DNA of 64,000 nucleotides from contig DATDZA010000018.1 of NCBI GenBank assembly GCA_035288865.1, forward strand, positions 10,065 to 74,064. The letters run 5' to 3'. Source of the DNA: Candidatus Nanoarchaeia archaeon (GTDB lineage: Archaea > Nanobdellota > Nanobdellia > Woesearchaeales > GW2011-AR4). Position numbers and translations under genes: made by a program. The notes beneath the pieces are model-generated. The model ran no database searches and had not been told where the DNA came from. It was given only the letters and a program-made list of their open reading frames with translations. Numbering within the stretch: the stretch's first letter is position 1; each line of letters opens with the position of its first letter. This document shows positions 3,402 through 59,906 of the stretch, piece by piece.

Positions 3402-3405
3402 GATA

Positions 3406-29539: not shown

Positions 29540-29550
29540 GAATAGGATAT

Positions 29551-30426: not shown

Positions 30427-30429
30427 GGA

Positions 30430-33597: not shown

Positions 33598-33598
33598 T

Positions 33599-45251: not shown

Positions 45252-46100
45252 TTATTTCTTAAAATTATAAAGAGCATCGGTAATGTATCTATGGCGCTCC
45301 ATATTGTAATAAAAAGCCAAAATCCATATTAATTTTGCAATAAATAATACTAACAAATATGGCACAATAAACCCCACCACTGAGATTGGATAGTCCATTT
45401 TGTTTCTAAAAATATACTCCGTTAATGTTAAGATGATTAGTATAGGGCAGGAGAAATATGCTGAATAAAATAGGCCGTTGAATGGGTAAATCCCGAATAG
45501 CTTATGGATTATGCTTGTCTTAGACCACACGATCTTTTTTTGAGTATTCCATAATAATCTGCCCATCACTGGCCTGTAATTTTTTAGTGGCATACCCATT
45601 TCCATCATGCCGGTTTTTATTGATGACCTCATTGCGTAAGTTATAGAATGTTCTAAAGTTATAATCAGGGTGATGGCCAATCCCAGGTATAAATATAATC
45701 CATTGCTGTAAATTTTTGAGAGGCCAACACCAATTCCAGTACCAAAGCATATAGACCAAACGTAATGGCTCATCTCATCGAAGAAGATACCCTCAAAACT
45801 TTTTTGATTAAGTATTCTTGCGATGTCCCCGTCTGAGCTGTCTAGAGTATAAAATAAAAAAAATAATGCAATCCCGACTGCGAAATAAATATATGTGCCT
45901 AAGGATAAGAATATGTAGCCCAAAACTCCCAAGAGATACGTGAATAGGGTTAGCTTGTTTGGTGTAGCGCCTAATTTTATCAGAATATATGTAAACGGAA
46001 GAGAAATTTTAACATATATTGTGTTCCCCTTTTTCTTTGATTTTATATCCGCTTCCTGCCTCGCTGCTAAATCTTTAAATGAAATATTCTTGCTCGTCAT
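45252..46100 (-). CDS. CDP-alcohol phosphotransferase-family membrane protein (variant motif), paralog of 28673..29539
   Basis: DSSDGDIARILNQKSFEGIFFDEMSH approximates D(x)2DG(x)2AR(x)8G(x)3D(x)3[D>H]. Multi-TM. Confidence 0.5.
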   Translation of the reverse strand: MTSKNISFKDLAARQEADIKSKKKGNTIYVKISLPFTYILIKLGATPNKLTLFTYLLGVLGYIFLSLGTYIYFAVGIALFFLFYTLDSSDGDIARILNQKSFEGIFFDEMSHYVWSICFGTGIGVGLSKIYSNGLYLYLGLAITLIITLEHSITYAMRSSIKTGMMEMGMPLKNYRPVMGRLLWNTQKKIVWSKTSIIHKLFGIYPFNGLFYSAYFSCPILIILTLTEYIFRNKMDYPISVVGFIVPYLLVLFIAKLIWILAFYYNMERHRYITDALYNFKK

Positions 46101-46197: not shown

Positions 46198-48072
46198 ATG
46201 TGCGGAATATGCGGTTTCAATTTTGAGGATCCGAAGCTTGCCAAAGTGATGAATGATTCCATAAGCCACAGGGGTCCGGATTCCGATGGAGTTTACACAG
46301 ACAAAGGGATTTCTCTTGGCAACAGGAGGTTGAAAATAATTGATTTGTCAGCCAACGGCAGAATGCCCATGGCAAATATAGAAGGAAATTTGATAATAAC
46401 TTTTAATGGAGAAATTTACAATTTCCAGAAAATCAGAGACCAATTGGAAAAAAAAAGGCATAAATTTAATTCCCACTCAGATACGGAAGTTATTTTATAC
46501 GCTTATCAAGAATACGGAAGCAAATGCCTGGGACTGTTCAATGGGGATTTTGCATTTGCAATATGGGATTCACAAAAAAAAGAATTATTTCTTGCTAGGG
46601 ACAGGATTGGGATAAAGCCGCTGTATTATTACAATAAAGATGGCAAATTTATCTTTGCGTCTGAAATAAAAGCGATACTTCAGCACAAGGATGTCAAGCG
46701 GGCTGTCAATGAAAATTGCCTGAGGCAAATTATTCTTTATGCCTATCCAATAAGGGAAGAAACTCTGATTGAGAATATAATGGAGTTAAAGCCCGGGCAT
46801 TTTCTCATCGTAAAAAACAACAAAATAAAGATTGAGAAATATTGGGATTTGCAAGCAAATGAAACAAACAAGACAGAAAATTTCTACAAAAAAACTGTCC
46901 AGCACCTGCTTTCTGAGTCGGTTAAAAGAAGAATGGTGGCCGATGTCCCATTGGGAGTATCACTATCCGGCGGCATTGATTCAAGCGTTCTTGTTGCGAT
47001 GGCTAGCAGGCACAGCAAAGAGCCGGTGAAGACATTTACCGTAGGCTTTGGCGCAAATGATGAAGACTGCAGGCATGCGAGGATAATTGCTGACCACTTT
47101 GGAACAGACCATAGAGAAATTCATCTTGAATATGGAGACATGACAAAAGCTTTGGTCAAAGTGCTGTGGCACATGGAAATTCCAATTTCAAGGCCCGCAA
47201 TGACCCCTCTTTATTATCTCTACAACAAAATAAGAGAGAAACTCACCGTCAGCTTAGCCGGGGAAGGTTCGGACGAGATTTTTGCCGGATACAATCGATA
47301 TGATGCATACACCAAATTACCAAAGCCCGGCGAGGTAAAAGATAAAACCTATTACGATCAGTTAAAAGAAAAAATAAGCATGCCCCTTAACAAAAAAATA
47401 GAATATGTATCTTCAGGAGTTTTCAACAAGGATAAAAAGAAATTTTTTGGCAACAAGTTATTGAAAATCCCAAAAAATATCAATGTTATGAACACTTTTG
47501 GGCCTTACCTGAAAAACACAAAAAACGATGGAAAACAGCTTAACAAGACACTGCTTTACGAACTCAAGACGGAAATACCTTATTTCCACTGCAACAAGCT
47601 GGACAAGCTTAGCATGGCAAATTCTCACGAGGTAAGAGTGCCATACCTTGATCACACTCTTGTCGAGTTTGCCATGACAATACCGTCGGAATACAAATTT
47701 TACGGCGCAGGGAAAAAAATAATCCTGCAAAAAATTGCCAATGAGCTGCTTCCGAGGGAAGTTGCAAAAAGAAGAAAAATGCCGATGGCAGTCCCATTGC
47801 ATGATTTTTTCAATAAAGAATTTATTGATATTGCAGACAATTTGCTTTCAGAACCGCAGATTAAGAAAAGAGAATATTATAAAATACCGGGAGTCAGGAA
47901 ACTGGTAAGCAATATAAAACAAAACAAAGTTGTATTAGATAAAAATAATGTGACCGAAGACAATGCTTACAGGCAGCTTTTGTTTTTTACAAACTTGGAG
48001 TTGTGGATAAAATTATTTATTGAGAATGATAACTTCAGAAACCCTGACCTTGATATTAATTCTTATTTGTGA
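46198..48072 (+). CDS. asnB: asparagine synthetase (glutamine-hydrolysing)-type amidotransferase
   Basis: MCGICGF (N-terminal nucleophile Cys2), SGGIDSS (PP-loop), 624 aa. Confidence 0.85.
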   Translation: MCGICGFNFEDPKLAKVMNDSISHRGPDSDGVYTDKGISLGNRRLKIIDLSANGRMPMANIEGNLIITFNGEIYNFQKIRDQLEKKRHKFNSHSDTEVILYAYQEYGSKCLGLFNGDFAFAIWDSQKKELFLARDRIGIKPLYYYNKDGKFIFASEIKAILQHKDVKRAVNENCLRQIILYAYPIREETLIENIMELKPGHFLIVKNNKIKIEKYWDLQANETNKTENFYKKTVQHLLSESVKRRMVADVPLGVSLSGGIDSSVLVAMASRHSKEPVKTFTVGFGANDEDCRHARIIADHFGTDHREIHLEYGDMTKALVKVLWHMEIPISRPAMTPLYYLYNKIREKLTVSLAGEGSDEIFAGYNRYDAYTKLPKPGEVKDKTYYDQLKEKISMPLNKKIEYVSSGVFNKDKKKFFGNKLLKIPKNINVMNTFGPYLKNTKNDGKQLNKTLLYELKTEIPYFHCNKLDKLSMANSHEVRVPYLDHTLVEFAMTIPSEYKFYGAGKKIILQKIANELLPREVAKRRKMPMAVPLHDFFNKEFIDIADNLLSEPQIKKREYYKIPGVRKLVSNIKQNKVVLDKNNVTEDNAYRQLLFFTNLELWIKLFIENDNFRNPDLDINSYL

Positions 48073-48151: not shown

Positions 48152-48958
48152 TCATAAAGGTATCTCTTTAATCCTTGTCTTGCTTGATTTTATCCCCACA
48201 CCAACCCAATTCTCGCCAAATAATCTCTCCAGCTTTAATATATCTATAAGTTTTGCTATCGGCTTTGGAAATAGTGTCATGCCAAATGCTTTGCTTTTGT
48301 AATCAAAGAAAACCCCCATCCTATACTTTGTTGCTTTAATCTTGTAAGGAAACAATTTTTCAAATTGCCTTTTTGAATAGACTTTTAGCAACGGAGCTCC
48401 CCATTCTTCCGTATTTTTATCTTTTTTTGATTCTGACATGAATCTAAAATAAAATTTCCTAAAAATGTAATGCTTCCATCCTTTTGCATACAGATGAATT
48501 AAAATCTTGCCATTAGGTCTTAGAACTCTATATGCCTCCCTTATTGCTTTTTCCGTATCTGGAGTATGATGCAGCACGCCAAGAGAATAAACAAAATCAA
48601 AAGTATTATCCTCAAAAGGCAGGTTTTCTGCATCGGCTTGAATGAAAGTGCCTTTTAAATTATAAATATCAAATCGCCTTTTTGTTATTTTTATTGCAGT
48701 TTCTGTTAAATCTATTCCAGTTACTATTGCTCCGTTCTTGGCAAACTGAAGTATATCAGTTCCACCTCCGCAGCCTATCTCTAAGACTTTCTTTCCTTTC
48801 CACTTATCCCATTTCAGAATTTCTGGAAAATACTTGTAATAAATTTCATATCTTTTTTGCTCCTGTTCATCAAAATAAGGTTTTGTATTAATCTTTTTGC
48901 TTGAATAAGCATCCTGCGGAAGATGGTTCTCCCACCAGTTCTTTATTTTTGTTTTCAT
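48152..48958 (-). CDS. class I SAM-dependent methyltransferase
   Basis: VLEIGCGGGTDILQFAK motif I and DFVYSLGVLHH. Its 5' end lies inside the tandem duplication. Confidence 0.7.
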   Translation of the reverse strand: MKTKIKNWWENHLPQDAYSSKKINTKPYFDEQEQKRYEIYYKYFPEILKWDKWKGKKVLEIGCGGGTDILQFAKNGAIVTGIDLTETAIKITKRRFDIYNLKGTFIQADAENLPFEDNTFDFVYSLGVLHHTPDTEKAIREAYRVLRPNGKILIHLYAKGWKHYIFRKFYFRFMSESKKDKNTEEWGAPLLKVYSKRQFEKLFPYKIKATKYRMGVFFDYKSKAFGMTLFPKPIAKLIDILKLERLFGENWVGVGIKSSKTRIKEIPL

Positions 48959-49088
48959 CTTCTGTCATCTTAAACTGTTATTTATCTTTTTCAAACAATG
49001 AATTTTATTCTCCCACCAGTTCTTTATTTTTGTTTTCATCTTCTGTCATCTTAAACTGTTACTTGTCTTTTTCAAACAATGAATTAAT
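48927..49088. repeat. perfect-register tandem duplication of an 81-bp unit (2 copies, 3 mismatches)
   Basis: TTCTCCCACCAGTTCTTTATTTTTGTTTTCATCTTCTGTCATCTTAAACTGTTA... occurs at 48927 and again at 49008. It spans the stop of the GAPDH-family gene and the start of the methyltransferase gene. Confidence 0.85.
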
Positions 49089-50105
49089 CAAGTCAATAAC
49101 CCTGCAGCTGTAACCCCACTCGTTGTCGTACCATAAAATTAATTTTAAATAATTGCCACTGTTTATTGTTGTCCATCTTTGGTCTATAATTGCAGAGTAC
49201 TCGCTTCCCTTGAAATCAATAGAGACAAGGGGGTCATAATTGTTATAGAATATATTGAATTTTTGCTTTTTCGCCGCATTTTCAAACAACGATCTAATTT
49301 CATCGACAGTAGTTTTTTTCCCTAGTTTTACTGATATATCGGATGAAGACACAGTAGCAGTGGGCACCCTGTATGAAAACGAATCAAACTTTCCCTTGAG
49401 GAATTTCAGCACTTTGCAGGCTGCCTCGACTGTCGTAGTGGGCTTTGGCAGCAGTGAAAACGTGCTTGCGCGCCCGAAAATATAATTGGAGTATATGTGG
49501 CCCGGATATGAAAAGGAAGGGCTCGGGCCGTCAAGAAGATTTTGGTACTGGAGCCAGGGATGCAGCGTCGTGATAAAACCGTGCTCTACCCCAAATTCCT
49601 GGTTCAGTACATTCATAACCGGCCCGAAGGCATTCGCATCACAAATGCTGTTTGAAATCACAAAATCTTTCTTGACATCAATATCATCTTCGTTTATGCC
49701 CACGATTACTGACTTGTCAACCAGTTTTTCTTCCGGGGAATGAGTCAATATAACCTGCCTGACCTTATTTTTTAAGTTTCTCGCCTTAACAACGTTTTCG
49801 TGAACACCGGAAGCATCAATTACCCTTGTTATGCCGTGCAAATCCCAGGGAACTTCATCAATATTATTTTCGTGATAGATTAAAATTTTCTTTCCATTTA
49901 CAACCATACCGGTCTGATTGGACTTGATATCCTGCTTTAGTATGCCGTACAAGGAATCATATTTTAATTGATAAGCAATATTGTTGTTGTCCGGATTTAT
50001 GTCGTTAATTACTACAACATCAAAATCCCTGCTCTCCAGAACTTTCCTGAACACAGCCCTGCCGATGCGCCCGAATCCGTTGATGCCAACAAGTTTATTA
50101 ACCAT
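49059..50105 (-). CDS. type-I (bacterial-type) GAPDH-family dehydrogenase with divergent active-site region
   Basis: VGINGFGRIGR (NAD motif) and ITTLHPW (cf. TTVHA). The catalytic-Cys region reads SNSICDAN instead of SNASCTTN. Confidence 0.65.
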   Translation of the reverse strand: MVNKLVGINGFGRIGRAVFRKVLESRDFDVVVINDINPDNNNIAYQLKYDSLYGILKQDIKSNQTGMVVNGKKILIYHENNIDEVPWDLHGITRVIDASGVHENVVKARNLKNKVRQVILTHSPEEKLVDKSVIVGINEDDIDVKKDFVISNSICDANAFGPVMNVLNQEFGVEHGFITTLHPWLQYQNLLDGPSPSFSYPGHIYSNYIFGRASTFSLLPKPTTTVEAACKVLKFLKGKFDSFSYRVPTATVSSSDISVKLGKKTTVDEIRSLFENAAKKQKFNIFYNNYDPLVSIDFKGSEYSAIIDQRWTTINSGNYLKLILWYDNEWGYSCRVIDLINSLFEKDK

Positions 50106-50150
50106 ACAATTTGGTATGCCCCGGGCATTTAAAAATATTCCTAAATTCCT

Positions 50151-50594
50151 TTAAACATATTTTTCTATAGATATAAATTCGAGATTATTTGAATCATTAT
50201 CTTTTGCATAAACCACAAGCCTTCCCCTGTTTGGCCCTTTGGGAATTATCTGCGGCCTGCCGGCAAGTTTCACTTTATTTTTTTTGAGCTTATTCATAAG
50301 ACTCATAAATCCATCAACATTAAAACAAATGTGTGCGCTGCCAATGTTGCAGGTTGCCGTGTCCAGCTTCTTGCCTTTCGGTGATAAATATTGGATAAGC
50401 TCTATCGAGCAATTGTTGCCGGATAGATAAGCAATTTTCAACTCAGCTTTTGGTATCCCGGTCACTTTTTCTGAGAACTTTGAATCTCGCATTGAAATAT
50501 CCATCAGCCTAAGCCCAAGAATATCTTTATAAAATTTTACAGAGTTGTCCAGGCTGCGCACAGTAAAACTCAAGTGATTCACGCTTGTAATCAT
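50151..50594 (-). CDS. VOC (glyoxalase/bleomycin-resistance/dioxygenase) family protein
   Basis: INHLSFTVRSLDNSVKFYKDILGL is the βαβββ VOC N-terminal module, repeated. 147 aa. Confidence 0.6.
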   Translation of the reverse strand: MITSVNHLSFTVRSLDNSVKFYKDILGLRLMDISMRDSKFSEKVTGIPKAELKIAYLSGNNCSIELIQYLSPKGKKLDTATCNIGSAHICFNVDGFMSLMNKLKKNKVKLAGRPQIIPKGPNRGRLVVYAKDNDSNNLEFISIEKYV

Positions 50595-50595
50595 C

Positions 50596-51732
50596 TTAAT
50601 AATCCAACTCCTCTTTTTTTATATAATTTGCGCAGTCTTCTATCAAATAATCATAAGTTTCGATGAACTCCCCCAAGAACGCTCTTACAAAATCCGGAGT
50701 GGTCCTATAGAAAGGAACGCCTTTTTTGGAATAAGGCCGTGCAATGCCGTTAATCAAAACAAGATTGATGCCCGTGCTCGAAGACTTTTTGTCCCTCATC
50801 ATGAAATTAACAAGATTATCCACATTAATATTCCGGTCAATATATATATTCAATCCCAATTCTTTCATCAGGCTTATTATGCGCTGAACAGATTTAGAAT
50901 CAATAATGCCGAGTTTTTTTGAAAAATGCAATGACATAACGGTTCCGGCGCTTATGGCATCTCCATGAAGTATTTCAAAATTTGAAATCTTTTCTATCGC
51001 ATGGCCAAAGGTGTGGCCAAGATTGCTCGCGAGAGGATTTATTTTTCTTATTTTTATTCTAGTCTCTGAAGCTAATTTTATTATATTCATAAGCAAATTG
51101 GGAGATGGTTTTTTTGAATATAGTCGCATCATGCCTATCAGCCTTGACGAGCCAAGAAGCCCGTATTTAAAAATTTCAGAATATCCCTGCCTTAAATGAT
51201 ATCTAGAATTTGTGCTGAGAAAATTGATGTTGTTGTATACTTTTAAGGGATAATAAAAAGTTCCAAGGAGATTTTTTGAATTTGAAGTATTAAGGCACGT
51301 CTTGCCTGCCGTTGAAGCATCAATCTGCCCAATAAGCGTTGTTGGGATGGCATAAAACGGCATGGCCCTCATGTAAGTGGAGCATGTGAAGCTTACAAGG
51401 TCTATTACTATACCGCCGCCAATGGCGATAACAAGGTCGGATAGATTGGACTTGTGCTTTTCAAGAAAATCCACAAGCTTAGGGTAGAAATTGATAGACT
51501 TGCTCTGCTCGCTAGCCTCAACCTCAAAGAAGAACATCGGCTTTTTGTGTGTGTTCAATCCCTTTCGTATTTTGCTGCCCCAAAGCCTACTTACTTCTTC
51601 GTCCATTATTACAAAAAATCTTTCAAAGCTGTGGCTGTCAAAATCGCCAATCCAGGTCATATTTGGGTCGTCATCAATTATAAAATCAATAGTATCCTTT
51701 TTTACATAAGTTGTTTTTATGTTCTTTATCAT
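50596..51732 (-). CDS. 3-dehydroquinate-synthase-family sugar-phosphate cyclase
   Basis: IAIGGGIVIDLVSF...AIPTTLIGQIDASTAGKTCLN and NLGHTFGHAIE...HGDAISAGTV align closely with AroB-type DHQS motifs (GGGV.GDL..F, PTTLL.QVDSS.GGKT, LNLGHTFGHAIE, HGEAV..GM). Confidence 0.75.
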   Translation of the reverse strand: MIKNIKTTYVKKDTIDFIIDDDPNMTWIGDFDSHSFERFFVIMDEEVSRLWGSKIRKGLNTHKKPMFFFEVEASEQSKSINFYPKLVDFLEKHKSNLSDLVIAIGGGIVIDLVSFTCSTYMRAMPFYAIPTTLIGQIDASTAGKTCLNTSNSKNLLGTFYYPLKVYNNINFLSTNSRYHLRQGYSEIFKYGLLGSSRLIGMMRLYSKKPSPNLLMNIIKLASETRIKIRKINPLASNLGHTFGHAIEKISNFEILHGDAISAGTVMSLHFSKKLGIIDSKSVQRIISLMKELGLNIYIDRNINVDNLVNFMMRDKKSSSTGINLVLINGIARPYSKKGVPFYRTTPDFVRAFLGEFIETYDYLIEDCANYIKKEELDY

Positions 51733-51733
51733 A

Positions 51734-52501
51734 TTAAAGTGCGTCCGTTTGATTCTGGACTAAATATTTTCCGCCGCTTATTTCAATATTTGCGCCCGTT
51801 AGATAAGATGCACCATCTGAGCACAGAAAAAGGACGGCCTGTGCAACTTCATCTGAGTTGCCATAGCGGCCAAGTGCAATCGCATCGGCAAGATTTTTCT
51901 TTTTTCTTATCAGGACTTTGTTCATGTCTGTCTCAATTACGCCGGGGCAATAGCTGTTGACTCTGATTCCATAGGGGGCAAGCTCAGCTGCCATGCTTTT
52001 TGTGATGCTTGCGACACCAGCCTTTGAAGCCGCATATACACAGCTTCCCACAGAAGGCATGACTGCGGCAAATGAAGATGCATTAATGATAACTCCATTT
52101 CGGTTTTTTTTCATGTGCTCGGCGGCAAACAGGGATAAAAAAAACAGTGATTTTAGGTTTGTTTCAAAAGTCCTATCCCAATGCTCTTCGGTTACTTGCA
52201 GCAGTTTTGATTGCAGGCACACTCCGGCATTGTTTACCCAAATGTCAATTCTTTTCCCATTTTTTGTGTAGCTTTCAATCCAATCTTTTACAGATTTAAG
52301 ATTTGTTATATCAAGCTGCACAAATTTATAATTATTACCTGCAGGCTTTTTTGTATTCTGAGGCGATCTTGAGATATTAATGACATTCGCCCCACTTTTG
52401 AGGAAGCTTTTAGCTATAGAAAACCCGATTCCTCTGGATGCACCTGTTATGACTACATTCTTTGCCCTGAAATCGAACTTTATGCCGCTCATATTATTCA
52501 T
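51734..52501 (-). CDS. short-chain dehydrogenase/reductase (SDR)
   Basis: VVITGASRGIGFSIA (TGxxxGIG), NNAG, and YAASKAG (YxxxK). Confidence 0.8.
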   Translation of the reverse strand: MNNMSGIKFDFRAKNVVITGASRGIGFSIAKSFLKSGANVINISRSPQNTKKPAGNNYKFVQLDITNLKSVKDWIESYTKNGKRIDIWVNNAGVCLQSKLLQVTEEHWDRTFETNLKSLFFLSLFAAEHMKKNRNGVIINASSFAAVMPSVGSCVYAASKAGVASITKSMAAELAPYGIRVNSYCPGVIETDMNKVLIRKKKNLADAIALGRYGNSDEVAQAVLFLCSDGASYLTGANIEISGGKYLVQNQTDAL

Positions 52502-52545
52502 AATTGCAAAAGTTATAGCTATTTAAATAAATTTCTTTTATTTTT

Positions 52546-53886
52546 TTATTTGCCTTGAAGGTAAACATTGATATCTCCCACATTTGTGTTAGTTGGCTTT
52601 GTTAAAATCAATGTATTAAGTATTTTATGGAGATCAAATGAATTGTTGTTTTTTATAAATGCCCCAATATCAAGCCTCAATTTCTGAGATTTTGAATAAG
52701 TGCTGTTGTCCGCAATTGCCCCCCCTACACCCGGCAGAAAATCAATGCCATCCGAATCTATGGAAGCAGCGACGCAATTACTCAAGTTTTTTATTTCATT
52801 AATTAAATATGCAATGTACTCCTGATTCCTCCCGCCTTTGCCCTTGCCTTTAACAGTGACGGTGTTCTCGCTACTGTAGATAAACGCAAACTTACCTTTC
52901 TGCAGCTTCTGCTTCCGTTTGAATATTTTTGACATTTTCGCCGCGACATTTTTAACTTCTCCTTCAGTATGCTCTGGGAGTATCTCAGTATCAAACCCAA
53001 GCTCAGCGGCTTTTTCTCCCATTGCTTCAAGGGCAGTTCTGTAGTCTGCAATAGTGTAATTATGGACATTTCCAAGAAATTTTTCATTTGGTTTCACAGT
53101 TTCTGGTATTTTGCCTTGCATGCCTTTTTTTATGTGACGTGTGACGCTTTGTGGCACTTTTTTCCATAATTTGTGTTTCTTTAATATCTCATAAGATTGC
53201 CTGAAGGTTGAATTATCAGGGCATGTAGGGCCTGACGCAGTCACATCATTTGGGTTTATCACATCAGATAAAATCAGCGAGATCACTCTTGCAGGCTGCA
53301 GGGTTCTTGCAAAATTTCCGCCTTTTAGCATTGATGTGTGCTTTCTGAGATTATTTAATTCGTAGCTTTTTGCCCCAGATTTTATCATCATTTCCGTCAT
53401 TCTCTTAAGATCTTTTAGCGTTATCCCTTCTGCAGGATCCGGAAGTAATGCAGAGCCGCCGCCGGAAATCAAGAATATTACTGTGTCACCCTTACGCGCT
53501 TTTTTTGCAATATCGAGCATCCGCTTTGTTCCATTTACACCCCTTTCATCGGGAACCGGATGAGATGCCATGTTAATTTTTATTTTTTCTGTTTTTATGC
53601 TGTTTGTGCTGCAGTTTACAATTCCAGCAGTTATGTGTTCTTTTGGAATAATCTTTTCCAAGGCACTTGCCATGGCTGCAGATGCTTTTCCGAAGCCTAT
53701 GACATAGATTTTTCCTTTTGATATATTAAGTTCGTCCCCGCAAATCTTGAGAATTCCATTGTTGAAGGCGACTTTTTTTGGCAATGCAGTCTGAGGCATT
53801 ACACTATTCACTCCAGCTAAAAGGATATCAAGTGCATCTCTCTTGAGGGGAGCTGAAGCAATTTGGCTATAATTTTTAATTATCAT
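52546..53886 (-). CDS. MOFRL-family glycerate kinase-like protein
   Basis: VIGFGKASAAMASALE and DTVIFLISGGGSALL (MOFRL/GckA-type motifs), 446 aa. Confidence 0.7.
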   Translation of the reverse strand: MIIKNYSQIASAPLKRDALDILLAGVNSVMPQTALPKKVAFNNGILKICGDELNISKGKIYVIGFGKASAAMASALEKIIPKEHITAGIVNCSTNSIKTEKIKINMASHPVPDERGVNGTKRMLDIAKKARKGDTVIFLISGGGSALLPDPAEGITLKDLKRMTEMMIKSGAKSYELNNLRKHTSMLKGGNFARTLQPARVISLILSDVINPNDVTASGPTCPDNSTFRQSYEILKKHKLWKKVPQSVTRHIKKGMQGKIPETVKPNEKFLGNVHNYTIADYRTALEAMGEKAAELGFDTEILPEHTEGEVKNVAAKMSKIFKRKQKLQKGKFAFIYSSENTVTVKGKGKGGRNQEYIAYLINEIKNLSNCVAASIDSDGIDFLPGVGGAIADNSTYSKSQKLRLDIGAFIKNNNSFDLHKILNTLILTKPTNTNVGDINVYLQGK

Positions 53887-54628
53887 TTTTTAAAATAAGT
53901 TTTAACCTCTTATTGGCCTTTCTTAGATCATTAGCATTATCAATTTCCTGCCATGCGTATTTTCCAGTTTTTATTATATAAAGATTAGAGTGCATGATAA
54001 ACTGGTGAATGGCCATTTCAATCTGTCCGAAACTCTTTCCCAGAGATATCTGATTTTTATTTTTGGAAATTACTTTTTTTATCTCCATGAAATACTTTCT
54101 TGCGCCTTTTGGAGAATACCTATATATCCCTATTGCCCTTGCATTACTATCTCTTAAGTTCCTTCCAATTCCGATAATTCTGTTGCGCGCTACTTTAACT
54201 TTCATAGCATTTTTTTCTAATTTGATTTTATTGTCTATAACTGCTATATCTGGGTAAGCGGCAGAAATAAGATTTTTTAATATGTTTATATTAAATAATA
54301 CGTCAGCATTGAGAAAAATAAACCCATCATCAATATCGTCTCTAGCTTCCCATAAAGAATACATATTGTCAGTTTTACCATAGTTCTTGTTTATGCGGTA
54401 TTTTATTCTGCAATTCTTGTATCTGGTTCCAATCATTTTTCTGAATTTTTTTGACTTATAACCGGCCACTATAATGACTTCATTTATGCCGCACGCGGAC
54501 AGATTATCCAAAGCATATTCAATAATCCTTTTTCGCCCGATTCTGATTAAGCATTTGGGAATATTATCTGTGTAAGGCCTCAGTCTTCTTCCCTGCCCGG
54601 CTGCGCATATTATAGCTTTCATTATCAA
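53876..54628 (-). CDS. LicC/MobA-like nucleotidyltransferase (sugar- or alcohol-phosphate cytidylyl/guanylyltransferase-like)
   Basis: AIICAAGQGRRLRPYTDNIPKCLI and NMYSLW. Overlaps the kinase gene by 11 nt. Confidence 0.65.
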   Translation of the reverse strand: MIMKAIICAAGQGRRLRPYTDNIPKCLIRIGRKRIIEYALDNLSACGINEVIIVAGYKSKKFRKMIGTRYKNCRIKYRINKNYGKTDNMYSLWEARDDIDDGFIFLNADVLFNINILKNLISAAYPDIAVIDNKIKLEKNAMKVKVARNRIIGIGRNLRDSNARAIGIYRYSPKGARKYFMEIKKVISKNKNQISLGKSFGQIEMAIHQFIMHSNLYIIKTGKYAWQEIDNANDLRKANKRLKLILKNDN

Positions 54629-54811: not shown

Positions 54812-56206
54812 TTGACAAGTTTGTCCAGAACAAGTGAAATGATGAATATTTTGCTGCTTATTATAGATGCTTTAAGACCCGATCATTTAGGTGCATGTGG
54901 TTATAGCCGGGAAACCAGCCCAAATATTGATAAGCTTGCAAATGAAGGAGTAGTATTCTTGAATGCTTATTGCACACTGCCAAGATCCGACCCTTCTATA
55001 ACTTCGATGCTTACCGGAAACTACCCATATTCCCATGGGGTAAGGATGATTACAAACAACAAAGTAGATCCTTCGATTTCCACTCTCCCCGAAATACTCA
55101 AGAGCCACGGTTACAGGACAGGATTCATAAAGCCGGGAACAATCCCTCCGGAAGGATACAGCAGGGGCTTTGATGATTATGATTTGGTTGGATGGAAAAT
55201 CAAGAATAAAATTAAGAGGGGAATATTCAAGATAAAAAATCCCGGAAATTTCTTGGGACCGGCAGCACAAAGATTTTCAACAGCCGTTAAGTGGATTAAT
55301 AAAAATGCACACAAAAAATTCTTTTTAGCTGTGCATACGCACGACTTGCACTGGCCATATCCCGTGCCCAAGCCATATGACCATATTTTTGACCCCGGCT
55401 ATAAAGGTGCACACACATTTGCTGATTTGGGCAAAGGGACAATCAGCAGGGGCGACCTCAGTTTTGGAGTCAAGAAACTCCCTAAAGAAGAAATTGACCA
55501 CGCGATTGCCCATTATGATGGCGGAATAAAGTATGTTGACGAATCGCTCAAAACAGTTTTCGATGCGCTGAAGGAAAAAAATATCTATGACGATACTTTA
55601 ATTATTATAGTTTCAGACCATGGCGAACACTTTGATGAGCATGGTTATTATTTTCAGCATGGCGCCAGCCTTTATGAACCCAGTGTAAAATCAACTTTTA
55701 TTATGAGATATCCAAAAAGGATTCCTCAGAAAAAAATAATTGAAAGCAGAGTTCAGTTGCTGGATATAACTCCAACAATTCTTGACATCCTCAATATACC
55801 TTTAATAGAAAAGAAAGAAGGCGTAAGCCTTATGCCACTTATAGACGGAAAAGTCAATGAAGCCCGTGATTTTGTATTCGTTGAGGGAATCGAAGAGTAT
55901 TTTAGCCAGCACAAGAGGATTTATCTGAAAGGCATAAAAGGAAAATGGCGAATGATTATTGTCGGTGACTGGAAACTTATATATATACCACATCCTGAAA
56001 AAAATATTTTTGAACTTTACAATCTGCGCCAAGACCCAAAGGAAGAAAGCAACCTGGTTGGCAAAGAGCAGGAAATATTTTTATCACTAAAGACGAAATT
56101 ATTTGATTTTTTGAGCTTGCAGAGCAATGAAGGCGAAGTCAACATTAAGGATTTGTCACAAAAGTCAAGGCAATTGCTGATTAAAGCTGGCTATCTGGAA
56201 AAATGA
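54812..56206 (+). CDS. sulfatase-family (alkaline-phosphatase superfamily) protein, cytoplasmic, non-canonical Cys motif
   Basis: NILLLIIDALRPDHLG N-terminus and SDHGEHFDEHGYYFQHG. A candidate formylglycine site CTLPRS sits where CxPxR is expected, with P shifted one residue. No signal peptide. Confidence 0.65.
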   Translation: MTSLSRTSEMMNILLLIIDALRPDHLGACGYSRETSPNIDKLANEGVVFLNAYCTLPRSDPSITSMLTGNYPYSHGVRMITNNKVDPSISTLPEILKSHGYRTGFIKPGTIPPEGYSRGFDDYDLVGWKIKNKIKRGIFKIKNPGNFLGPAAQRFSTAVKWINKNAHKKFFLAVHTHDLHWPYPVPKPYDHIFDPGYKGAHTFADLGKGTISRGDLSFGVKKLPKEEIDHAIAHYDGGIKYVDESLKTVFDALKEKNIYDDTLIIIVSDHGEHFDEHGYYFQHGASLYEPSVKSTFIMRYPKRIPQKKIIESRVQLLDITPTILDILNIPLIEKKEGVSLMPLIDGKVNEARDFVFVEGIEEYFSQHKRIYLKGIKGKWRMIIVGDWKLIYIPHPEKNIFELYNLRQDPKEESNLVGKEQEIFLSLKTKLFDFLSLQSNEGEVNIKDLSQKSRQLLIKAGYLEK

Positions 56207-56220
56207 TATTGTGAACGAGA

Positions 56221-57369
56221 ATGAAAATTCCATTTCTCTCCGGAAAAAGAAAACCCAACATCGTAATGATTCTGATAGATTGCGGCGGGCGAGAAGATGC
56301 CATCACGAAAGTGCCGTTCTACCAGAAGCTAAAAGAATCGTCTGTACTATTTTCAAGTTTTATAACTTACGCCCCTTATACCATCGGGGCCCTAAATGCA
56401 ATGTTTTCAGGAATGTACGGCAATTTGAATGGCGTTCAGGGATATTATAAGAGTTATAGCTTTGACAAGGACCACGTTTTTACATTGACGCAATACCTGA
56501 AAGACGAGGGATATTACACCGAGATGGATTTTCCGATTGAAGACGTACTTCCCCAACAGGGTTTTGATAAGGTGAGGCTTTTCGGCAAGGACGAAACTAA
56601 AGAGATAGACCTTTTACAGCGCCATTGCGAGGTCCTTAACCAAATAAAAGACAAACAGCCATTCTTCCTTTTCCTTGAATACAACAAACTGGGATTGACC
56701 CTTATGAGGGAAGTAATAAAGAAATATGATGATTACAATGAAGATTATTTCAGGAACAAGGAAAAAAACTTTTCCAGATATTTAAAAGAGCTCGAGGAAA
56801 GCGGTAATTACCTGGAAGGATACTTCACAAAGATGAAAGAGCTTGATTTGTTTGAAAATTCAATAATTGTAGTGTTTGCCGACCACGGAAGCAGTGTGGG
56901 TGATAAACCAGGGGAAAAAGTCTATGGTACATATCTGTATGATTACACCATAAAATGCTGGGCCTATGTGATTGGCAATGGCATACCTAAGAATCTGGAA
57001 ATTAGGCAAGTTGTGAGGAATATAGACTTGCTTCCAACTATTCTGGAATTATTAAAAATATCAGTAAAGAAAAAATATAAACCAATTCAGGGCAGGTCGC
57101 TGCTGCCATTGCTGACGGGAAAAAAAGAAGCTAGGATTGCTTATTCGGAAACAGGCGGCCTTGGAGGACCAACACCTTCGCCGGAAAAACACAATATCAG
57201 GGCGGTAAGAACTGACAAATGGAAATTGATCTATAATGAAACCAACAAGAAAAAAGAGTTATATGACTTGGAGAATGACAGAGAGGAAATAAATAACCTC
57301 ATAGGCAAGGGGCTGGATATAGAAAAATTACTGTGGGATGAGCTGCAGAGACAGGGCGAGCTTCTTTAA
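56221..57369 (+). CDS. sulfatase-like alkaline-phosphatase-superfamily protein lacking the C/S-x-P-x-R motif
   Basis: NIVMILIDCGGRED and VVFADHGSSVGD (DHG). No formylglycine motif and no signal peptide. Confidence 0.55.
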   Translation: MKIPFLSGKRKPNIVMILIDCGGREDAITKVPFYQKLKESSVLFSSFITYAPYTIGALNAMFSGMYGNLNGVQGYYKSYSFDKDHVFTLTQYLKDEGYYTEMDFPIEDVLPQQGFDKVRLFGKDETKEIDLLQRHCEVLNQIKDKQPFFLFLEYNKLGLTLMREVIKKYDDYNEDYFRNKEKNFSRYLKELEESGNYLEGYFTKMKELDLFENSIIVVFADHGSSVGDKPGEKVYGTYLYDYTIKCWAYVIGNGIPKNLEIRQVVRNIDLLPTILELLKISVKKKYKPIQGRSLLPLLTGKKEARIAYSETGGLGGPTPSPEKHNIRAVRTDKWKLIYNETNKKKELYDLENDREEINNLIGKGLDIEKLLWDELQRQGELL

Positions 57370-57769: not shown

Positions 57770-59188
57770 ATGAGCACACAAGAAAAGACTGGCAGTCAGA
57801 TGCCCAAGCCAAGTTCTGGGAAATATGCTAACCAGATTTATGGCGATTTCTGCATGGCTTCAGCGAAGCAATTAAACTTAGTTCCTATTGATATGGGATA
57901 TGGTGACCCTGCGTCAGATAAGTTTATACCCAAGGAATTGCTGAGACATTTTCTAGATCAGCTTCATAATAAGAATGCAGGAGCCTATCCGGATGTTAAA
58001 GGTGATATAAATCTTATCAATAAATTCAAGGAATTCATAAAAAATGATGAGGGACTGTCATATGATTACGACGTTGCAGTTGTCAGCGGCGGCGGCAGGT
58101 CTGCAATTACAAATATTTTAAGCATTTTCTTAAAGCCGAAAGACATCGTCCTTATACCTTATCCGGCATGGAGCGGCTATAAATCACTGGCAAGATTTGT
58201 GGATGCAATTATTTACCCAATTACTACAACAATGAATAAGCGGTTCATCCCTTCTGTAGCAGACATAGAATCGGCAATAGCCGAATCCAAAAAAAGCCAC
58301 CCCAACAGTAATGTTAAGCTGATGATTTTAAACACGCCACATAACCCTACAGGATCAGTTTACTCAAGCGATTCCATAAGGGAAATTCTGCAGATTCTGC
58401 ATAAGCATGGAATAGCCTGTCTTGCAGATTATACTTATAGGGCGATTAGGGACAAGGGCACGCCCATGCAGTCAGTCCATAAAATTGCTGAAGATATTGA
58501 GTTTGAGGAGCAGCTTCCAAAAGGCACATTTACTGATAACATAGTGGCTATGCAGACAGTCGGTAAAGTATCGCTTACGCCTGGGTTCAGGATAGGATAT
58601 GTAGCAACTACCAACTCAAAGGTCATCGAGGCGTTTTGCACCAAAAAACAAGCAATAGACTTCTCGGGAATTTTATTCATACAAAAAGCATTTTCAGAAT
58701 ACCTGCTTACGCAAAGCCAGGCAAATGAATTTGAGCAAACAATCAACTTATTTGATAAAAGAAGAAGCACATTTATAGACCAGATAAGTAAATATGGATA
58801 CGCTCCAGATAAACATAACATAATTATAAACAAATCTGGATTTTACATCTCTTTTGAGATACCACGCCAATATCACAAAAAATACCCCCTGGAGCAGTTT
58901 CATCAACTGGTGCAGAAATACCCTTTTATTGAAAAGTGCATTAACCTTGACGAATACAAGGGATGGTTTGCGGAAAGAGGATACATACCGGCTTCTGAAA
59001 TATTTGTCTTGGATATTATTAGTAAAACGGCTATTAATCTGCTTCCCGGATACCTTTTCTGTTCCGTGAACAAGCAATTTCCGAATGAGTATGAAAATTG
59101 GGTTAGGGTTGCATTAATACAAGATGAAAGTTCAATTAATGAGGCGTTTAAAAGAATAGAAAATCATAAGGATTTGCTTAAGTGGTGA
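57770..59188 (+). CDS. class I pyridoxal-phosphate aminotransferase with ~90-aa N-terminal extension
   Basis: VGKVSLTPGFRIGYV is the fold-type I PLP-lysine region (cf. SVSKTYAMTGWRIGY in the other aminotransferase). 472 aa. Confidence 0.7.
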   Translation: MSTQEKTGSQMPKPSSGKYANQIYGDFCMASAKQLNLVPIDMGYGDPASDKFIPKELLRHFLDQLHNKNAGAYPDVKGDINLINKFKEFIKNDEGLSYDYDVAVVSGGGRSAITNILSIFLKPKDIVLIPYPAWSGYKSLARFVDAIIYPITTTMNKRFIPSVADIESAIAESKKSHPNSNVKLMILNTPHNPTGSVYSSDSIREILQILHKHGIACLADYTYRAIRDKGTPMQSVHKIAEDIEFEEQLPKGTFTDNIVAMQTVGKVSLTPGFRIGYVATTNSKVIEAFCTKKQAIDFSGILFIQKAFSEYLLTQSQANEFEQTINLFDKRRSTFIDQISKYGYAPDKHNIIINKSGFYISFEIPRQYHKKYPLEQFHQLVQKYPFIEKCINLDEYKGWFAERGYIPASEIFVLDIISKTAINLLPGYLFCSVNKQFPNEYENWVRVALIQDESSINEAFKRIENHKDLLKW

Positions 59189-59901: not shown

Positions 59902-59906
59902 AAGGA

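Follow-up and report, generated by a model that had tools for sequence, protein, structure and literature searches.

Six co-directional genes occupy positions 49059-54628 on the minus strand of the window, by which we mean the whole 64-kb stretch of DNA that was analyzed (Table 1). An initial annotation had described them as an operon-like block, and the open reading frames are found at the coordinates it gave, with Pfam families that agree. The NTP-transferase and MOFRL kinase genes overlap by 11 nt, and the gaps that follow measure 44 nt between kinase and SDR, 1 nt between SDR and the enzyme of the 3-dehydroquinate synthase (DHQS) family, 1 nt between the DHQS-like and VOC genes, and 45 nt between the VOC and GAPDH-like genes. 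The setting is the surface-glycan island that had been proposed, with GT4 and GT2 glycosyltransferases and Polysacc_synt flippases in the same window along with several dehydratases, NTP-transferases and methyltransferases. No shikimate-pathway (aro) genes were found among the ORFs of at least 150 aa scanned in the window, in keeping with the earlier remark that none lies nearby. A CDP-alcohol phosphotransferase and an AsnB-like amidotransferase, both beyond the coordinates of the initial annotation, were overlooked there.

Table 1. Genes of the block and of its surroundings in the window.
Feature	Position	Strand	Length	Pfam family
NTP-transferase	53876-54628	-	250 aa	NTP_transferase + NTP_transf_3
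MOFRL kinase	52546-53886	-	446 aa	DUF4147 + MOFRL
SDR	51734-52501	-	255 aa	adh_short / adh_short_C2
DHQS-family enzyme	50596-51732	-	378 aa	DHQ_synthase + DHQS_C
VOC-fold protein	50151-50594	-	147 aa	Glyoxalase (VOC)
GAPDH-like dehydrogenase	49059-50105	-	348 aa	Gp_dh_N + Gp_dh_C
SAM-dependent methyltransferase	48152-48958	-		Methyltransf_11/25/31
AsnB-like glutamine-dependent amidotransferase	46198-48072	+		GATase_7 + Asn_synthase
CDP-alcohol phosphotransferase, membrane protein	45252-46100	-		CDP-OH_P_transf
GT4 glycosyltransferases	26419-27612, 34813-35898, 42053-43264			
GT2 glycosyltransferases	2157-4755, 39013-39951			
Polysacc_synt flippases	18225-19682, 60636-62126			

Phmmer mapping over GTDB loci shows the cassette surrounding the DHQS-family gene in 24 non-redundant loci, which come from DPANN, CPR, gut Lachnospiraceae, SAR86 and others, and this recurrence in different phyla of both prokaryotic domains means that the gene set is not a product of chance. 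The SDR gene adjoins the DHQS-like gene in 23 of the 24, and 22 carry the GAPDH-like gene; both exceptions are loci truncated at a contig end, and one of them has a longer copy in which the gene is seen. These three genes form the invariant core, while the kinase, the NTP-transferase (in the cassette in approximately 18 of 24 loci) and the CDP-alcohol transferase are variable; the VOC gene (18/24) is missing from a divergent sub-clade. The conserved neighborhood, the DHQS–VOC fusions (P0011, P0012, P0014 and P0015) and a single reading frame that joins NTP-transferase and SDR at locus L014 argue for functional coupling of the genes. In all phyla the neighbors are glycosyltransferases, flippases, Wzy-like polymerases and sugar-nucleotide enzymes, and no shikimate family appears within the 25 commonest families of 125 neighboring ORFs. 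The best explanation is that the cassette is one horizontally mobile biosynthetic unit that includes the six genes. The CDP-alcohol phosphotransferase belongs to the same unit, and the AsnB-like amidotransferase and the methyltransferase are probably members as well.

The DHQS-family enzyme, in which a profile-HMM search matched both domains of the family, is by its sequence a member of a new clade, monophyletic in 200/200 bootstraps and with 21–27% identity to AroB, SH7P cyclases, DDGS, DOIS and an EboD-like protein. Its best PDB sequence matches are DHQS. In the alignments the active site keeps R130, D146, K152, N162, E194, K197, N268, H271, H275, H287 and K356, and the NAD, metal and phosphate ligands are all present. 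A 6-residue deletion takes out the DExExGxR loop and hence R264, the arginine for the DAHP carboxylate, while K250 is Arg in all aligned members of the clade and a C-terminal extension of ~40 aa is present. The fingerprints of the relatives are absent, as SH7P cyclases have Met250, Asp/Ala268 and Pro275, DOIS has Glu268, and the EboD-like reference has H250 and D268. The AF2 model (pLDDT 91.5) has the sugar-phosphate-cyclase fold, with TM values of 0.76–0.83 to DHQS, DOIS, EEVS and DDGS alike, a comparison that does not discriminate between them, and the match to EEVS 4p53 (TM 0.83) is as good as that to DHQS. The aroB model gives 238.8 bits, under its equivalog cut-off of 305, and with the carboxylate-binding loop deleted and the shikimate context missing we reject an AroB identity, as we do that of a G1P dehydrogenase (EgsA model, 40 bits vs. 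a cut-off of 413). The initial annotation had named both identities as findings that would overturn its reading, and in this respect it stands; its analogy to the C7-cyclitol cyclases (EEVS, DDGS, DOIS) is not supported, given the separate clade and the lack of an SH7P-cyclase or DOIS fingerprint.

The GAPDH-like protein was correctly described as a divergent type-I GAPDH, with 266.9 bits against TIGR01534 (GAPDH-I, cut-off 367.2) and with GAPDH as its best PDB sequence matches; it stays below the Epd cut-off as well. It falls in a distinct clade marked by an “SICD” active-site motif, in which C149, H176, R195, R231, T208 and N313 are kept. Relative to GapA this clade has S148→I, T150→D and T179→L (where Epd has Met) plus a 9–10 aa insertion; T150→D, T179→L and the insertion are invariant in 24 aligned copies, and S148→I is found in 23, with Thr in L018. 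The inorganic-phosphate site of GAPDH is changed by S148I and T150D. From these features we predict an aldehyde dehydrogenase of a distinct GAPDH-family clade.

The residues H7, E65, H88 and E139 of the VOC protein are invariant in 17 loci, and it is predicted to be a metal-dependent epimerase or isomerase whose substrate is the ketone made by the DHQS-like enzyme. The resemblance of this protein to C7-cyclitol epimerases, which completed the initial analogy, did not materialize, as its only likeness is the generic one to glyoxalase, FosB and methylmalonyl-CoA epimerase. The SDR is FabG-like, scores under every equivalog cut-off, and is a predicted ketoreductase of the classical type.

At the kinase position, nine loci carry Gly_kinase (PF02595), seven carry MOFRL and three a small kinase-like protein, so that two unrelated glycerate-kinase families alternate in the cassette; two of three tested Gly_kinase versions pass TIGR00045 “glycerate kinase” (216 and 206 bits vs. 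a cut-off of 168). The MOFRL kinase of the window, whose closest relatives are PH0495 (PDB 1x3l, 277 bits) and TM1585 (2b8n), is predicted to re-phosphorylate a dephosphorylated product. That most variants carry a kinase agrees with prior elimination of the phosphate in the pathway. The argument for a “glycerate-like” substrate is weakened by a third, unrelated kinase family in the VOC-less sub-clade and by five loci (L011, L012, L018, L022 and L025) with no kinase in the fetched DNA. Two of these, L022 and L025, have a class-V aminotransferase instead, so products may vary between sub-clades.

Among solved structures, the NTP-transferase is most closely related to LicC (1jyk, E 1e-17), PntC (6pd1) and inositol-1-P cytidylyltransferase (IPCT; 2xme/4mnd), which agrees with the earlier “LicC-like” label and points to an enzyme like the cytidylyltransferases for small alcohol phosphates, predicted to convert X-phosphate to CDP-X. 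The CDP-alcohol phosphotransferase (CDP-OH_P_transf, 32.9 bits vs. a cut-off of 22) has AF2299 (4o6m) as its best PDB relative and DIPPS/AIP-synthase as its nearest models, and carries the motif DSSDGDIARx8Gx3Dx3H, in which the last Asp is replaced by His. This family adjoins the cassette in 10 loci and is absent from many others; its predicted role is to move X-phosphate from CDP-X onto an acceptor hydroxyl. The AsnB-like amidotransferase passes TIGR01536 (496 bits vs. 267) and has an orthologue beside the cassette in 6–7 loci (including L001, L006, L008, L010, L026 and L028), which fits a carboxylate in the product; the enzyme may amidate that carboxylate or one on a neighboring uronic acid. 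The methyltransferase, a homologue of which (196 bits) immediately precedes the DHQS-like gene in L006, is a probable accessory tailoring enzyme; methyltransferases are among the commonest neighbors (8 of 125 ORFs), although their link is weaker than that of the core genes.

With a probability of about 0.5, we favor a reading in which a small hydroxylated molecule, X, is built by the cassette and converted to CDP-X, from which X-phosphate is then attached through a phosphodiester to a surface glycan or lipid. The logic of building, re-phosphorylating, CDP-activating and phospho-transferring is much better supported than the identity of X, for which we offer a hypothesis; substrate, step order and product are inferred from the chemistry of the enzyme families. 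The GAPDH-like enzyme, which retains the catalytic Cys and His and two anion-site arginines and has Asp beside the cysteine, would oxidize an open-chain aldose phosphate to a phospho-aldonic acid, the leading candidate being erythrose-4-phosphate to 4-phosphoerythronate. The DHQS-like enzyme would then stop midway through the DHQS reaction, after transient NAD-dependent oxidation, beta-elimination of phosphate and re-reduction; as no carbonyl acceptor would be available, the product would be a linear omega-deoxy keto-acid such as 2-hydroxy-3-oxobutanoate and not a carbocycle. It is also important to consider that the loop deletion could widen the pocket instead of fitting it to a smaller acid. 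The metal-dependent VOC protein would epimerize or isomerize beside the ketone, and the SDR would reduce the ketone, giving a dihydroxy acid that resembles glycerate. One such acid is 2,3-dihydroxybutanoate (3-methylglycerate), of which we found no report from any glycan in the literature searched. Phosphorylation by the glycerate-kinase-family enzyme, formation of the CDP derivative by the LicC/IPCT-like enzyme and transfer of the phospho-acid by the CDP-alcohol phosphotransferase would follow, with amidation and methylation as optional tailoring.

The cyclitol idea of the initial annotation is the main rival to an acid product, live but weaker, and we consider it rather unlikely. Here the DHQS-like enzyme would take hexose-6-P or sedoheptulose-7-P as its substrate and cyclize it to a ketone of the inosose or valiolone type, to be epimerized by the VOC protein, reduced by the SDR, phosphorylated, converted to a CDP-cyclitol and installed as cyclitol-phosphate as in CDP-inositol/DIPPS chemistry. 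The conserved NAD, metal and phosphate residues are those of every known cyclase of the superfamily, the fold fits EEVS, and in the cyclitol pathways of EEVS and its VOC epimerase the VOC gene likewise lies next to or is fused with that of the DHQS-family enzyme. The NTP-transferase and the membrane transferase are similar to IPCT and DIPPS/AF2299, a pair whose closest precedent is CDP-inositol, itself a cyclitol, and EboD illustrates that new cyclase specificities are still turning up (PMC12904256). Against this, the clade and fingerprint are unlike those of the SH7P cyclases, DOIS and the EboD-like reference, and the GAPDH-like enzyme, the commonest partner and present in essentially all loci, is left with no role. 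The kinases alternate between two glycerate-kinase families, whereas those of known cyclitol pathways are of ROK or sugar-kinase type, as with the ROK genes beside the reference SH7P cyclases. For the frequent AsnB-like amidotransferase, a neutral cyclitol offers no evident target. A C7 cyclitol pathway is thus probably not encoded. The alternative that had been offered, an NDP-glycerate-type donor, lies closer to the reading favored here, but plain CDP-glycerate itself seems improbable. In that case kinase and NTP-transferase would take D-glycerate through 2-phosphoglycerate to CDP-glycerate, while the DHQS-like enzyme, the VOC protein, the SDR and the GAPDH-like dehydrogenase would supply glycerate or modify an unrelated sugar. 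Both main kinase types do come from glycerate-kinase families, and D-glyceramide 2-phosphate, cited in PMC6222762 as a phosphodiester-linked O-antigen substituent of Providencia alcalifaciens O22, would suit the adjoining amidotransferase; this known substituent lends support to the favored reading as well. However, phosphoglycerates are central metabolites, making a four-enzyme supply superfluous; the invariant core consists of the DHQS-like, SDR and GAPDH-like genes, with kinase, NTP-transferase and CDP-alcohol transferase as the variable part; the NTP-transferase/SDR reading frame links both halves in one pathway; and the kinases score far under the glycerate-kinase equivalogs (205 vs. 670, the glycerate 2-kinase figure for MOFRL, and 165 vs. 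625).

Still less probable is transfer of CDP-X onto a non-glycan acceptor, giving a novel polar lipid head group on diacylglycerol or archaeol (CDP-choline/CPT-type) or a compatible solute on another small phosphate ester (DIPPS-type). The nearest matches of the phosphotransferase are AF2299 and the models for DIPPS and archaetidylinositol-phosphate synthase, and its acceptor is not readable from sequence, but the glycan neighborhood in all phyla and the many loci lacking this transferase speak against such a use. That the genes are housekeeping ones, an AroB or G1P dehydrogenase and a glycolytic GAPDH placed in a glycan setting by chance, is very hard to maintain: aroB and GAPDH-I are the top curated models and DHQS and GAPDH the top PDB matches, yet both scores are under cut-off, the EgsA score is far lower still, the R264 loop, K250 and the GAPDH phosphate site are lost or altered, aro genes are missing from the window and the common neighbor families, and the genes keep strict synteny with glycan genes from phylum to phylum. 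The cassette is not one of aromatic amino-acid metabolism, and it very probably ends, as had been suggested, in a nucleotide-activated donor that serves a surface glycan. In gut Lachnospiraceae no CDP-alcohol phosphotransferase was found near the cassette, which is embedded there in a nonulosonic-acid cluster that also has an ATP-grasp ligase, so use of the product may differ in these bacteria.

The initial annotation described six co-directional minus-strand genes at 49059-54628, and the open reading frames were found there with Pfam domains in agreement. They are joined by an 11-nt overlap followed by gaps of 44, 1, 1, and 45 nt, and all six encoded proteins score under the curated equivalog thresholds of NCBIfam, which means that they are divergent superfamily members and not housekeeping enzymes. 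The earlier placement of this block in a surface-glycan island also holds, with glycosyltransferases, flippases, and sugar-nucleotide genes found across the window; further genes include PMT_2, UDP-glucose dehydrogenase, several NTP-transferases, 4,6-dehydratase/epimerases, methyltransferases, and an APS kinase, and the entire window is a single large glycan-assembly island. As previously remarked, shikimate genes are missing nearby, with zero aro genes among the ORFs of at least 150 aa scanned across the 64-kb window. The window also contains no tRNA gene and hence no integration-site evidence.

Features of the cassette and its surroundings, in window positions
Feature	Position	Strand	Length	Pfam or placement
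Rad51/RadA-family gene	911-1648			
GT2 glycosyltransferases	2157-4755, 39013-39951			
Polysacc_synt flippases (n=2)	18225-19682, 60636-62126			
GT4 glycosyltransferases	26419-27612, 34813-35898, 42053-43264			
CDP-alcohol phosphotransferase	45252-46100	minus		downstream of six-gene block
AsnB-like amidotransferase	46198-48072	plus		downstream of six-gene block
Methyltransferase	48152-48958	minus		directly downstream of six-gene block
GAPDH-like protein	49059-50105	minus	348 aa	Gp_dh_N+Gp_dh_C
VOC protein	50151-50594	minus	147 aa	Glyoxalase
DHQS-like enzyme	50596-51732	minus	378 aa	DHQ_synthase+DHQS_C
SDR	51734-52501	minus	255 aa	adh_short
MOFRL kinase	52546-53886	minus	446 aa	DUF4147+MOFRL
NTP-transferase	53876-54628	minus	250 aa	NTP_transferase / NTP_transf_3
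Class I/II aminotransferase	57770-59188	plus		second activation set
NTP_transf_3 cytidylyltransferase-like protein	59182-59901	plus		second activation set
SDR	59907-60626	plus		second activation set

The protein at the center of the block, previously assigned to the 3-dehydroquinate synthase (DHQS) family, matches both domains of that family above the gathering score (DHQ_synthase 104.4 bits, DHQS_C 84.7 bits), and its best PDB sequence matches are DHQS 3okf (152 bits), DDGS (105), EEVS (93), and DOIS 2d2x (68). An AF2 model (pLDDT 91.5) gives TM scores of 0.76-0.83 to DHQS, DOIS, EEVS, and DDGS alike, so that the fold (TM about 0.8) places the enzyme in the superfamily only, without separating classes. 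Residues were compared by alignment to DHQS structures and E. coli AroB (A. nidulans numbering). The GGG motif of the NAD site and the D146 and K197 equivalents are kept, as are the metal ligands E194, H271, and H287 and the phosphate ligands R130, K152, N162, N268, H275, and K356, with H275 replaced by Gln in one family member (locus L003). Since the NAD motif and both sets of ligands are the same as in AroB and the sugar-phosphate cyclases, the half-reaction of NAD-dependent oxidation and phosphate beta-elimination is very likely retained.

The remainder of the pocket has changed. A six-residue deletion takes out the DExExGxR loop, including R264, in every aligned family member and in no reference, and K250 has become Arg in every aligned member. 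R264 and K250 are ligands of the DAHP carboxylate in the AnDHQS-carbaphosphonate complex. Judging from the alignment, the part of the pocket that would hold the PEP-derived half of DAHP is rebuilt; further residues are newly invariant within the family (R181-Q182, C146, and D258), and the enzyme has a C-terminal extension of about 40 aa.

The fingerprint was drawn from annotated reference genes (plasmids, E. coli) comprising five AroB, three sedoheptulose-7-phosphate (SH7P) cyclases, one DDGS-like gene chosen beside an O-methyltransferase, two DOIS, and one EboD-like gene chosen beside a TatD hydrolase. Relative to these references, with 21-27% identity to every one, the family is monophyletic in 200/200 replicates of a Kimura-distance NJ bootstrap.

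Fingerprint residues of the reference classes and of the family (DHQS positions)
Position	AroB	DOIS	SH7P cyclases/DDGS	EboD-like	Family
250	K	K	M	H	R
268	N	E	D / A	D	N
275	H	H	P	H	H
356	K	K	variable	Q	K

The initial annotation had noted that clustering with AroB or with glycerol-1-phosphate dehydrogenase (EgsA) would point to aromatic or lipid metabolism, and the family stands apart from AroB with an altered fingerprint. An AroB identity is rejected by a TIGR01357 score of 238.8 bits (cut-off 305), the lost R264 loop, Arg at position 250, and the absent aro genes, and an EgsA identity by a score of 40.4 bits against a cut-off of 413 as well as by fingerprint and context. The SH7P cyclases (EEVS/EVS/DDGS) are set aside by R250, N268, and H275 and by the separate clade in 200/200 bootstraps, while for DOIS position 268 is Asn instead of Glu and the DOIS references group by themselves in 200/200. 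Grouping with the single putative EboD of the comparison, a Gloeothece protein assigned by gene context and carrying H250 and D268, occurred in 1/200 bootstraps, and none of the ebo partners (UbiA prenyltransferase, TatD-like hydrolase, and others) adjoins the DHQS-like gene. According to a 2026 review (PMC12904256), the classes known so far are DHQS, aminoDHQS, DOIS, EEVS, EVS, DDGS, and EboD; the family belongs to none of them. Unlike the superfamily references, its members are also encoded with a GAPDH-like protein and an SDR in nearly all of their glycan loci.

That partner was correctly described as a divergent dehydrogenase of the type I GAPDH family: it scores 266.9 bits against the type I phosphorylating GAPDH model (TIGR01534, cut-off 367.2) and 213 bits against the Epd equivalog (cut-off 539), and it keeps C149 and H176 along with R195, R231, T208, and N313 (GapA numbering). 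The active site reads SICD in place of ASCT, with T150→D and T179→L invariant in all 24 aligned copies and S148→I in 23 (Thr in locus L018); the inorganic-phosphate site (S148, T150, T208, and G209) is thus altered, G209 being replaced by Ser or Thr, and the S-loop carries an insertion of 9-10 residues. Position 179 is non-polar in the GAPDH-like protein (Leu) and in Epd (Met) alike. From these residues, the protein should still be able to take an anionic aldehyde to the thioacyl intermediate, and we infer that the Asp beside the cysteine would favor hydrolysis to the free acid. The VOC protein keeps all four metal ligands (H7, E65, H88, and E139), and its PDB matches are generic only (1ss4, FosB, methylmalonyl-CoA epimerase).

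The remaining proteins resemble enzymes of activation and transfer. The nearest PDB relatives of the MOFRL kinase are PH0495 (277 bits) and TM1585; the two-domain architecture is present, with glycerate 2-kinase equivalog scores of 205 (cut-off 670) and 186 (cut-off 550). At other loci the kinase is a Gly_kinase protein (PF02595) unrelated to MOFRL, and two of the three examined exceed the TIGR00045 glycerate-kinase threshold. The NTP-transferase, earlier called LicC-like, is indeed nearest to LicC, PntC, and inositol-1-P cytidylyltransferase, and the membrane transferase to AF2299 and to DIPPS / archaetidylinositol-phosphate synthase models. The latter matches PF01066 with 32.9 bits (cut-off 22) and has the signature DxxDGxxARx8Gx3Dx3D save for the final Asp, which is His in the window copy and in two comparison loci (L003:2425-3210, L013:5283-6065), Gly, Ser, or Val in other cassette-linked copies, and Asp in three only.

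How widely these genes travel together is evident from the relatives of the DHQS-like protein, for which a search gave at least 120 cluster representatives among the matches listed, at 43-83% identity; the few that carried source names came from Pacearchaeota, Nanoarchaeia, and Woesebacteria. The best cassette matches lie in Woesearchaeota and Pacearchaeota loci, which along with the Rad51/RadA-family gene suggests that the window comes from an archaeon of DPANN type. Gene tables around three distant members have the same gene set plus the CDP-alcohol phosphotransferase. An identical DHQS-like protein occurs on 14 metagenome contigs with gene order unchanged. Beside one such identical protein (L043:2139-2593), ORF calling splits the VOC gene in two (100 and 51 aa), which is a frameshift or assembly error. 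Scanning a single genome for each species revealed 24 cassette loci, in archaea (Woesearchaeota, Pacearchaeota, and Nanoarchaeota) and in bacteria (Woesebacteria, Peregrinibacteria, Nitrospinia, Gemmatimonadaceae, Epsilonproteobacteria, Bdellovibrio, Desulfobacterales, SAR86, Marinamargulisbacteria, gut Lachnospiraceae, Solobacterium, and Firmicutes CAG:95). Heimdallarchaeota were rejected as a host: the contig concerned (L027, MAG RS678) matches a SAR86 single-cell contig (L026:6751-20854) with 93.6% DNA identity along its full 14.1 kb and is probably mis-binned. Family members were absent from plasmids, where every match fell below 33% identity, and relatives were absent from viral contigs.

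Collapsing duplicates among the scan loci and adding the window and the gene-table loci gave 24 non-redundant loci, which were mapped by phmmer. The SDR adjoins the DHQS-like gene in 23 of these, and the GAPDH-like gene is present in 22, both exceptions ending at a contig edge and a longer copy of one having the gene. VOC is found in 18 loci and is missing from a divergent sub-clade of six. An NTP-transferase is present in about 18, the CDP-alcohol phosphotransferase in 10, and the AsnB-like amidotransferase in 7. The kinase is of the MOFRL type in 7 loci and the Gly_kinase type in 9, with no kinase gene in the fetched DNA of 5/24. Another three encode a conserved protein, roughly 225 aa long, whose DPHxxNF…YVDxxPP motifs resemble those of kinases (L024:9147-9875; L026:11870-12538, minus; L028:11799-12587) and which has a weak partial DUF6206 match and otherwise none. 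It takes the place of the glycerate-kinase-family gene in the VOC-less sub-clade, and is probably a small-molecule kinase with a protein-kinase-like fold.

DHQS-like and VOC domains are fused in four relatives (P0011, P0012, P0014, and P0015; e.g., L001:8001-9581), in several DPANN archaea, and an Epsilonproteobacteria MAG has NTP-transferase and SDR in a single reading frame of 508 aa (L014:8478-10001). Among 125 neighboring ORFs at 23 loci, GT4, methyltransferases, DegT aminotransferases, CDP-OH_P_transf, AsnB, and dehydratases are the commonest, and no shikimate family is among the 25 commonest Pfam families. In SAR86 the cassette lies within an O-antigen-type locus with Wzy, and in gut Lachnospiraceae within a nonulosonic-acid cluster (NeuB, NeuC-like epimerase, CMP-transferase, ATP-grasp ligase). 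Conservation across loci together with these glycan neighbors indicates a mobile glycan-tailoring module and not a chance juxtaposition.

The Lachnospiraceae locus (L019:1409-17425) is on a 418-kb contig, where DegT, Bac_transf, NeuB, and ATP-grasp ligase genes lie on one flank of the cassette and PHP, UDP-GlcNAc 2-epimerase, CMP-transferase, dehydratase, and CBS-NTP-transferase genes on the other; a near-identical locus in Firmicutes CAG:95 (L029) has both its Gly_kinase and DHQS-like ORFs split in two. At two deltaproteobacterial/Bdellovibrio-type loci a class-V aminotransferase directly follows the SDR (L022:11758-13005, L025:11818-12993), with neither VOC nor a recognizable kinase found there, which suggests an amino derivative of the cassette product in this sub-clade. 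Products probably differ among sub-clades, given the VOC genes missing in some and this aminotransferase.

Across loci, a constant core (GAPDH-like, DHQS-like, SDR, and VOC in most) is accompanied by a variable periphery of kinase, cytidylyltransferase, and phosphotransferase. We propose that the core would build a small molecule, X, which the periphery would activate and install. The kinase of most variants is expected if the DHQS-like step takes off the sole phosphate of its substrate, and we consider this logic of building, re-phosphorylation, CDP activation, and phospho-transfer probable. The nucleotide-activated donor of the initial annotation, destined for a surface glycan, is very probable. 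Its C7-cyclitol identity for that donor meets opposition from the fingerprint, the clade, the GAPDH-like enzyme, and the kinase type.

Members of the GAPDH family are known to act on triose and tetrose phosphates, which are obligately open-chain. For DHQS chemistry a hydroxyl must lie two carbons away from the carbon that bears the phosphate, which makes 4-phosphoerythronate a possible substrate and rules out 3-phosphoglycerate; moreover, carbons 4-7 of DAHP come from erythrose-4-P, and the retained half of the DHQS pocket would therefore already fit this fragment. In the most economical scheme, every step of which we infer, erythrose-4-P would be oxidized to 4-phosphoerythronate, which the DHQS-like enzyme would convert to 2-hydroxy-3-oxobutanoate; VOC and SDR would then give 2,3-dihydroxybutanoate (3-methylglycerate), followed by its phosphate, a CDP derivative, and finally a phosphodiester on the glycan, with optional amidation or methylation. 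The DHQS-like enzyme would accordingly be a non-cyclizing, NAD-dependent, phosphate-eliminating deoxygenase acting on a phospho-aldonate made by the GAPDH-like protein, and yielding a 4-deoxy-tetronic acid for a CDP donor and phosphodiester decoration. To this reading as a whole we give a probability of roughly 0.25. That X is some acyclic acid and not a cyclitol seems to us an even call, and its specific identity as the C4 compound is tentative.

The choice between an acid and a ring depends on several features of the loci. A GAPDH-family enzyme, converting aldehyde to carboxylate, is encoded along with the DHQS-like enzyme at almost all loci, the kinase comes from either of two families known only as glycerate kinases, the amidotransferase is frequent, and the aldehyde once oxidized would leave no carbonyl for aldol ring closure, all of which favor the acid. 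The cyclitol product first proposed would draw on a catalytic core that is that of a cyclase, on the VOC partners of EEVS pathways, and on CDP-inositol as the closest precedent for the transferase pair, but it gives no account of the GAPDH-like enzyme, the kinase choice, or the amidotransferase, and we regard it as unlikely, though still a serious candidate. A plain CDP-glycerate donor is improbable, as it would make the invariant core superfluous. The transferase family would fit a lipid head group or solute, which the glycan context does not, making such a product more improbable still. That these are simply housekeeping AroB or GAPDH enzymes is scarcely credible given their scores, fingerprints, and context.

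Validamycin, acarbose, and cetoniacytone pathways share with the cassette a DHQS-family enzyme, VOC, SDR, kinase, and NTP-transferase, and end in a nucleotide-activated, pseudo-sugar-like donor. The cassette differs from them in cyclase fingerprint and clade, in its glycerate-type kinases (ROK or sugar-kinase types in those pathways), in the near-constant GAPDH-like dehydrogenase that they lack, in the predicted use of the donor by a CDP-alcohol phosphotransferase instead of a pseudoglycosyltransferase, and in its setting, where DPANN archaea and CPR and gut bacteria assemble surface glycans, as opposed to actinomycete secondary metabolism. The order of kinase, cytidylyltransferase, and phosphotransferase is that of modules by which glycans receive phospho-substituents from CDP-activated small molecules: LicA/LicC/LicD (phosphocholine), IPCT/DIPPS (CDP-inositol), PntC (CMP-aminoethylphosphonate), and the CDP-glycerol and CDP-ribitol systems. 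Unlike in these systems, X would be built by a dedicated route of four enzymes (GAPDH-like, DHQS-like, VOC, and SDR) and not drawn from central metabolism, and the kinase comes from glycerate-kinase families. Activation and transfer are thus of a known kind, and the biosynthetic core is uncharacterized.

For a nucleotide-activated 2-phospho-hydroxy-acid moved to an alcohol, as proposed for X, CofC/CofD of F420 biosynthesis (2-phospho-L-lactate guanylyltransferase/transferase) provide a precedent without sequence relationship to the cassette. We know of no genes for glyceramide-phosphate decoration. A chemical precedent for a phosphodiester-linked, amidated C3 hydroxy acid is the D-glyceramide 2-phosphate of the Providencia alcalifaciens O22 O-antigen (cited in PMC6222762); the hypothetical acid of the cassette would be longer and deoxygenated. 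Curated libraries and the searchable literature yielded no description of the cassette or its clade-specific enzymes, nor was anything relevant published, as far as could be searched, on this combination of enzymes, on DHQS-like genes in DPANN glycosylation, or on glycans that contain dihydroxybutanoate.

Very little is known of the surface chemistry of DPANN archaea and CPR bacteria, which live attached to other cells. Retained in such small genomes and exchanged with gut bacteria and free-living ones, the seven-to-nine-gene cassette points to selection for a surface decoration. If the proposed reading is correct, both the CDP-activated acid donor and its phosphodiester decoration would be previously unknown, and horizontal transfer would have made the decoration common to DPANN archaea, CPR bacteria, and Lachnospiraceae of the human gut; if the DHQS-like enzyme does cyclize, it would add one more class of cyclitol, and the glycan decoration would be the first of its type to use a cyclitol phosphate. 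The cassette brings together three uncharacterized enzyme clades, namely the DHQS-like enzymes with the lost carboxylate loop, the GAPDH-like proteins with SICD, and divergent members of the glycerate-kinase families. Cyclizing or not, the automatic labels "3-dehydroquinate synthase" and "GAPDH" mislead metabolic reconstructions of the organisms that carry them.

Elsewhere in the window, ORFs at 24093-26369 (758 aa), 32512-34708 (380 and 369 aa), and 39991-42051 (686 aa) have no Pfam matches at E ≤ 1e-4. A second CDP-alcohol phosphotransferase gene (28673-29539) heads a run that continues with PHP, APS kinase, and PHP genes (28673-31844, minus), and two Sulfatase-family ORFs of the alkaline-phosphatase superfamily (54812-57369, plus) flank the cassette on its other side; a homologue of the first (581 bits) adjoins the cassette at locus L006. 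These two gene groups could be a glycan sulfation or phospho-transfer module. Finally, a second set of small-molecule activation genes, which overlap at their ends (57770-60626, plus), is similar to modules that combine an aminotransferase with a PntC-type enzyme.
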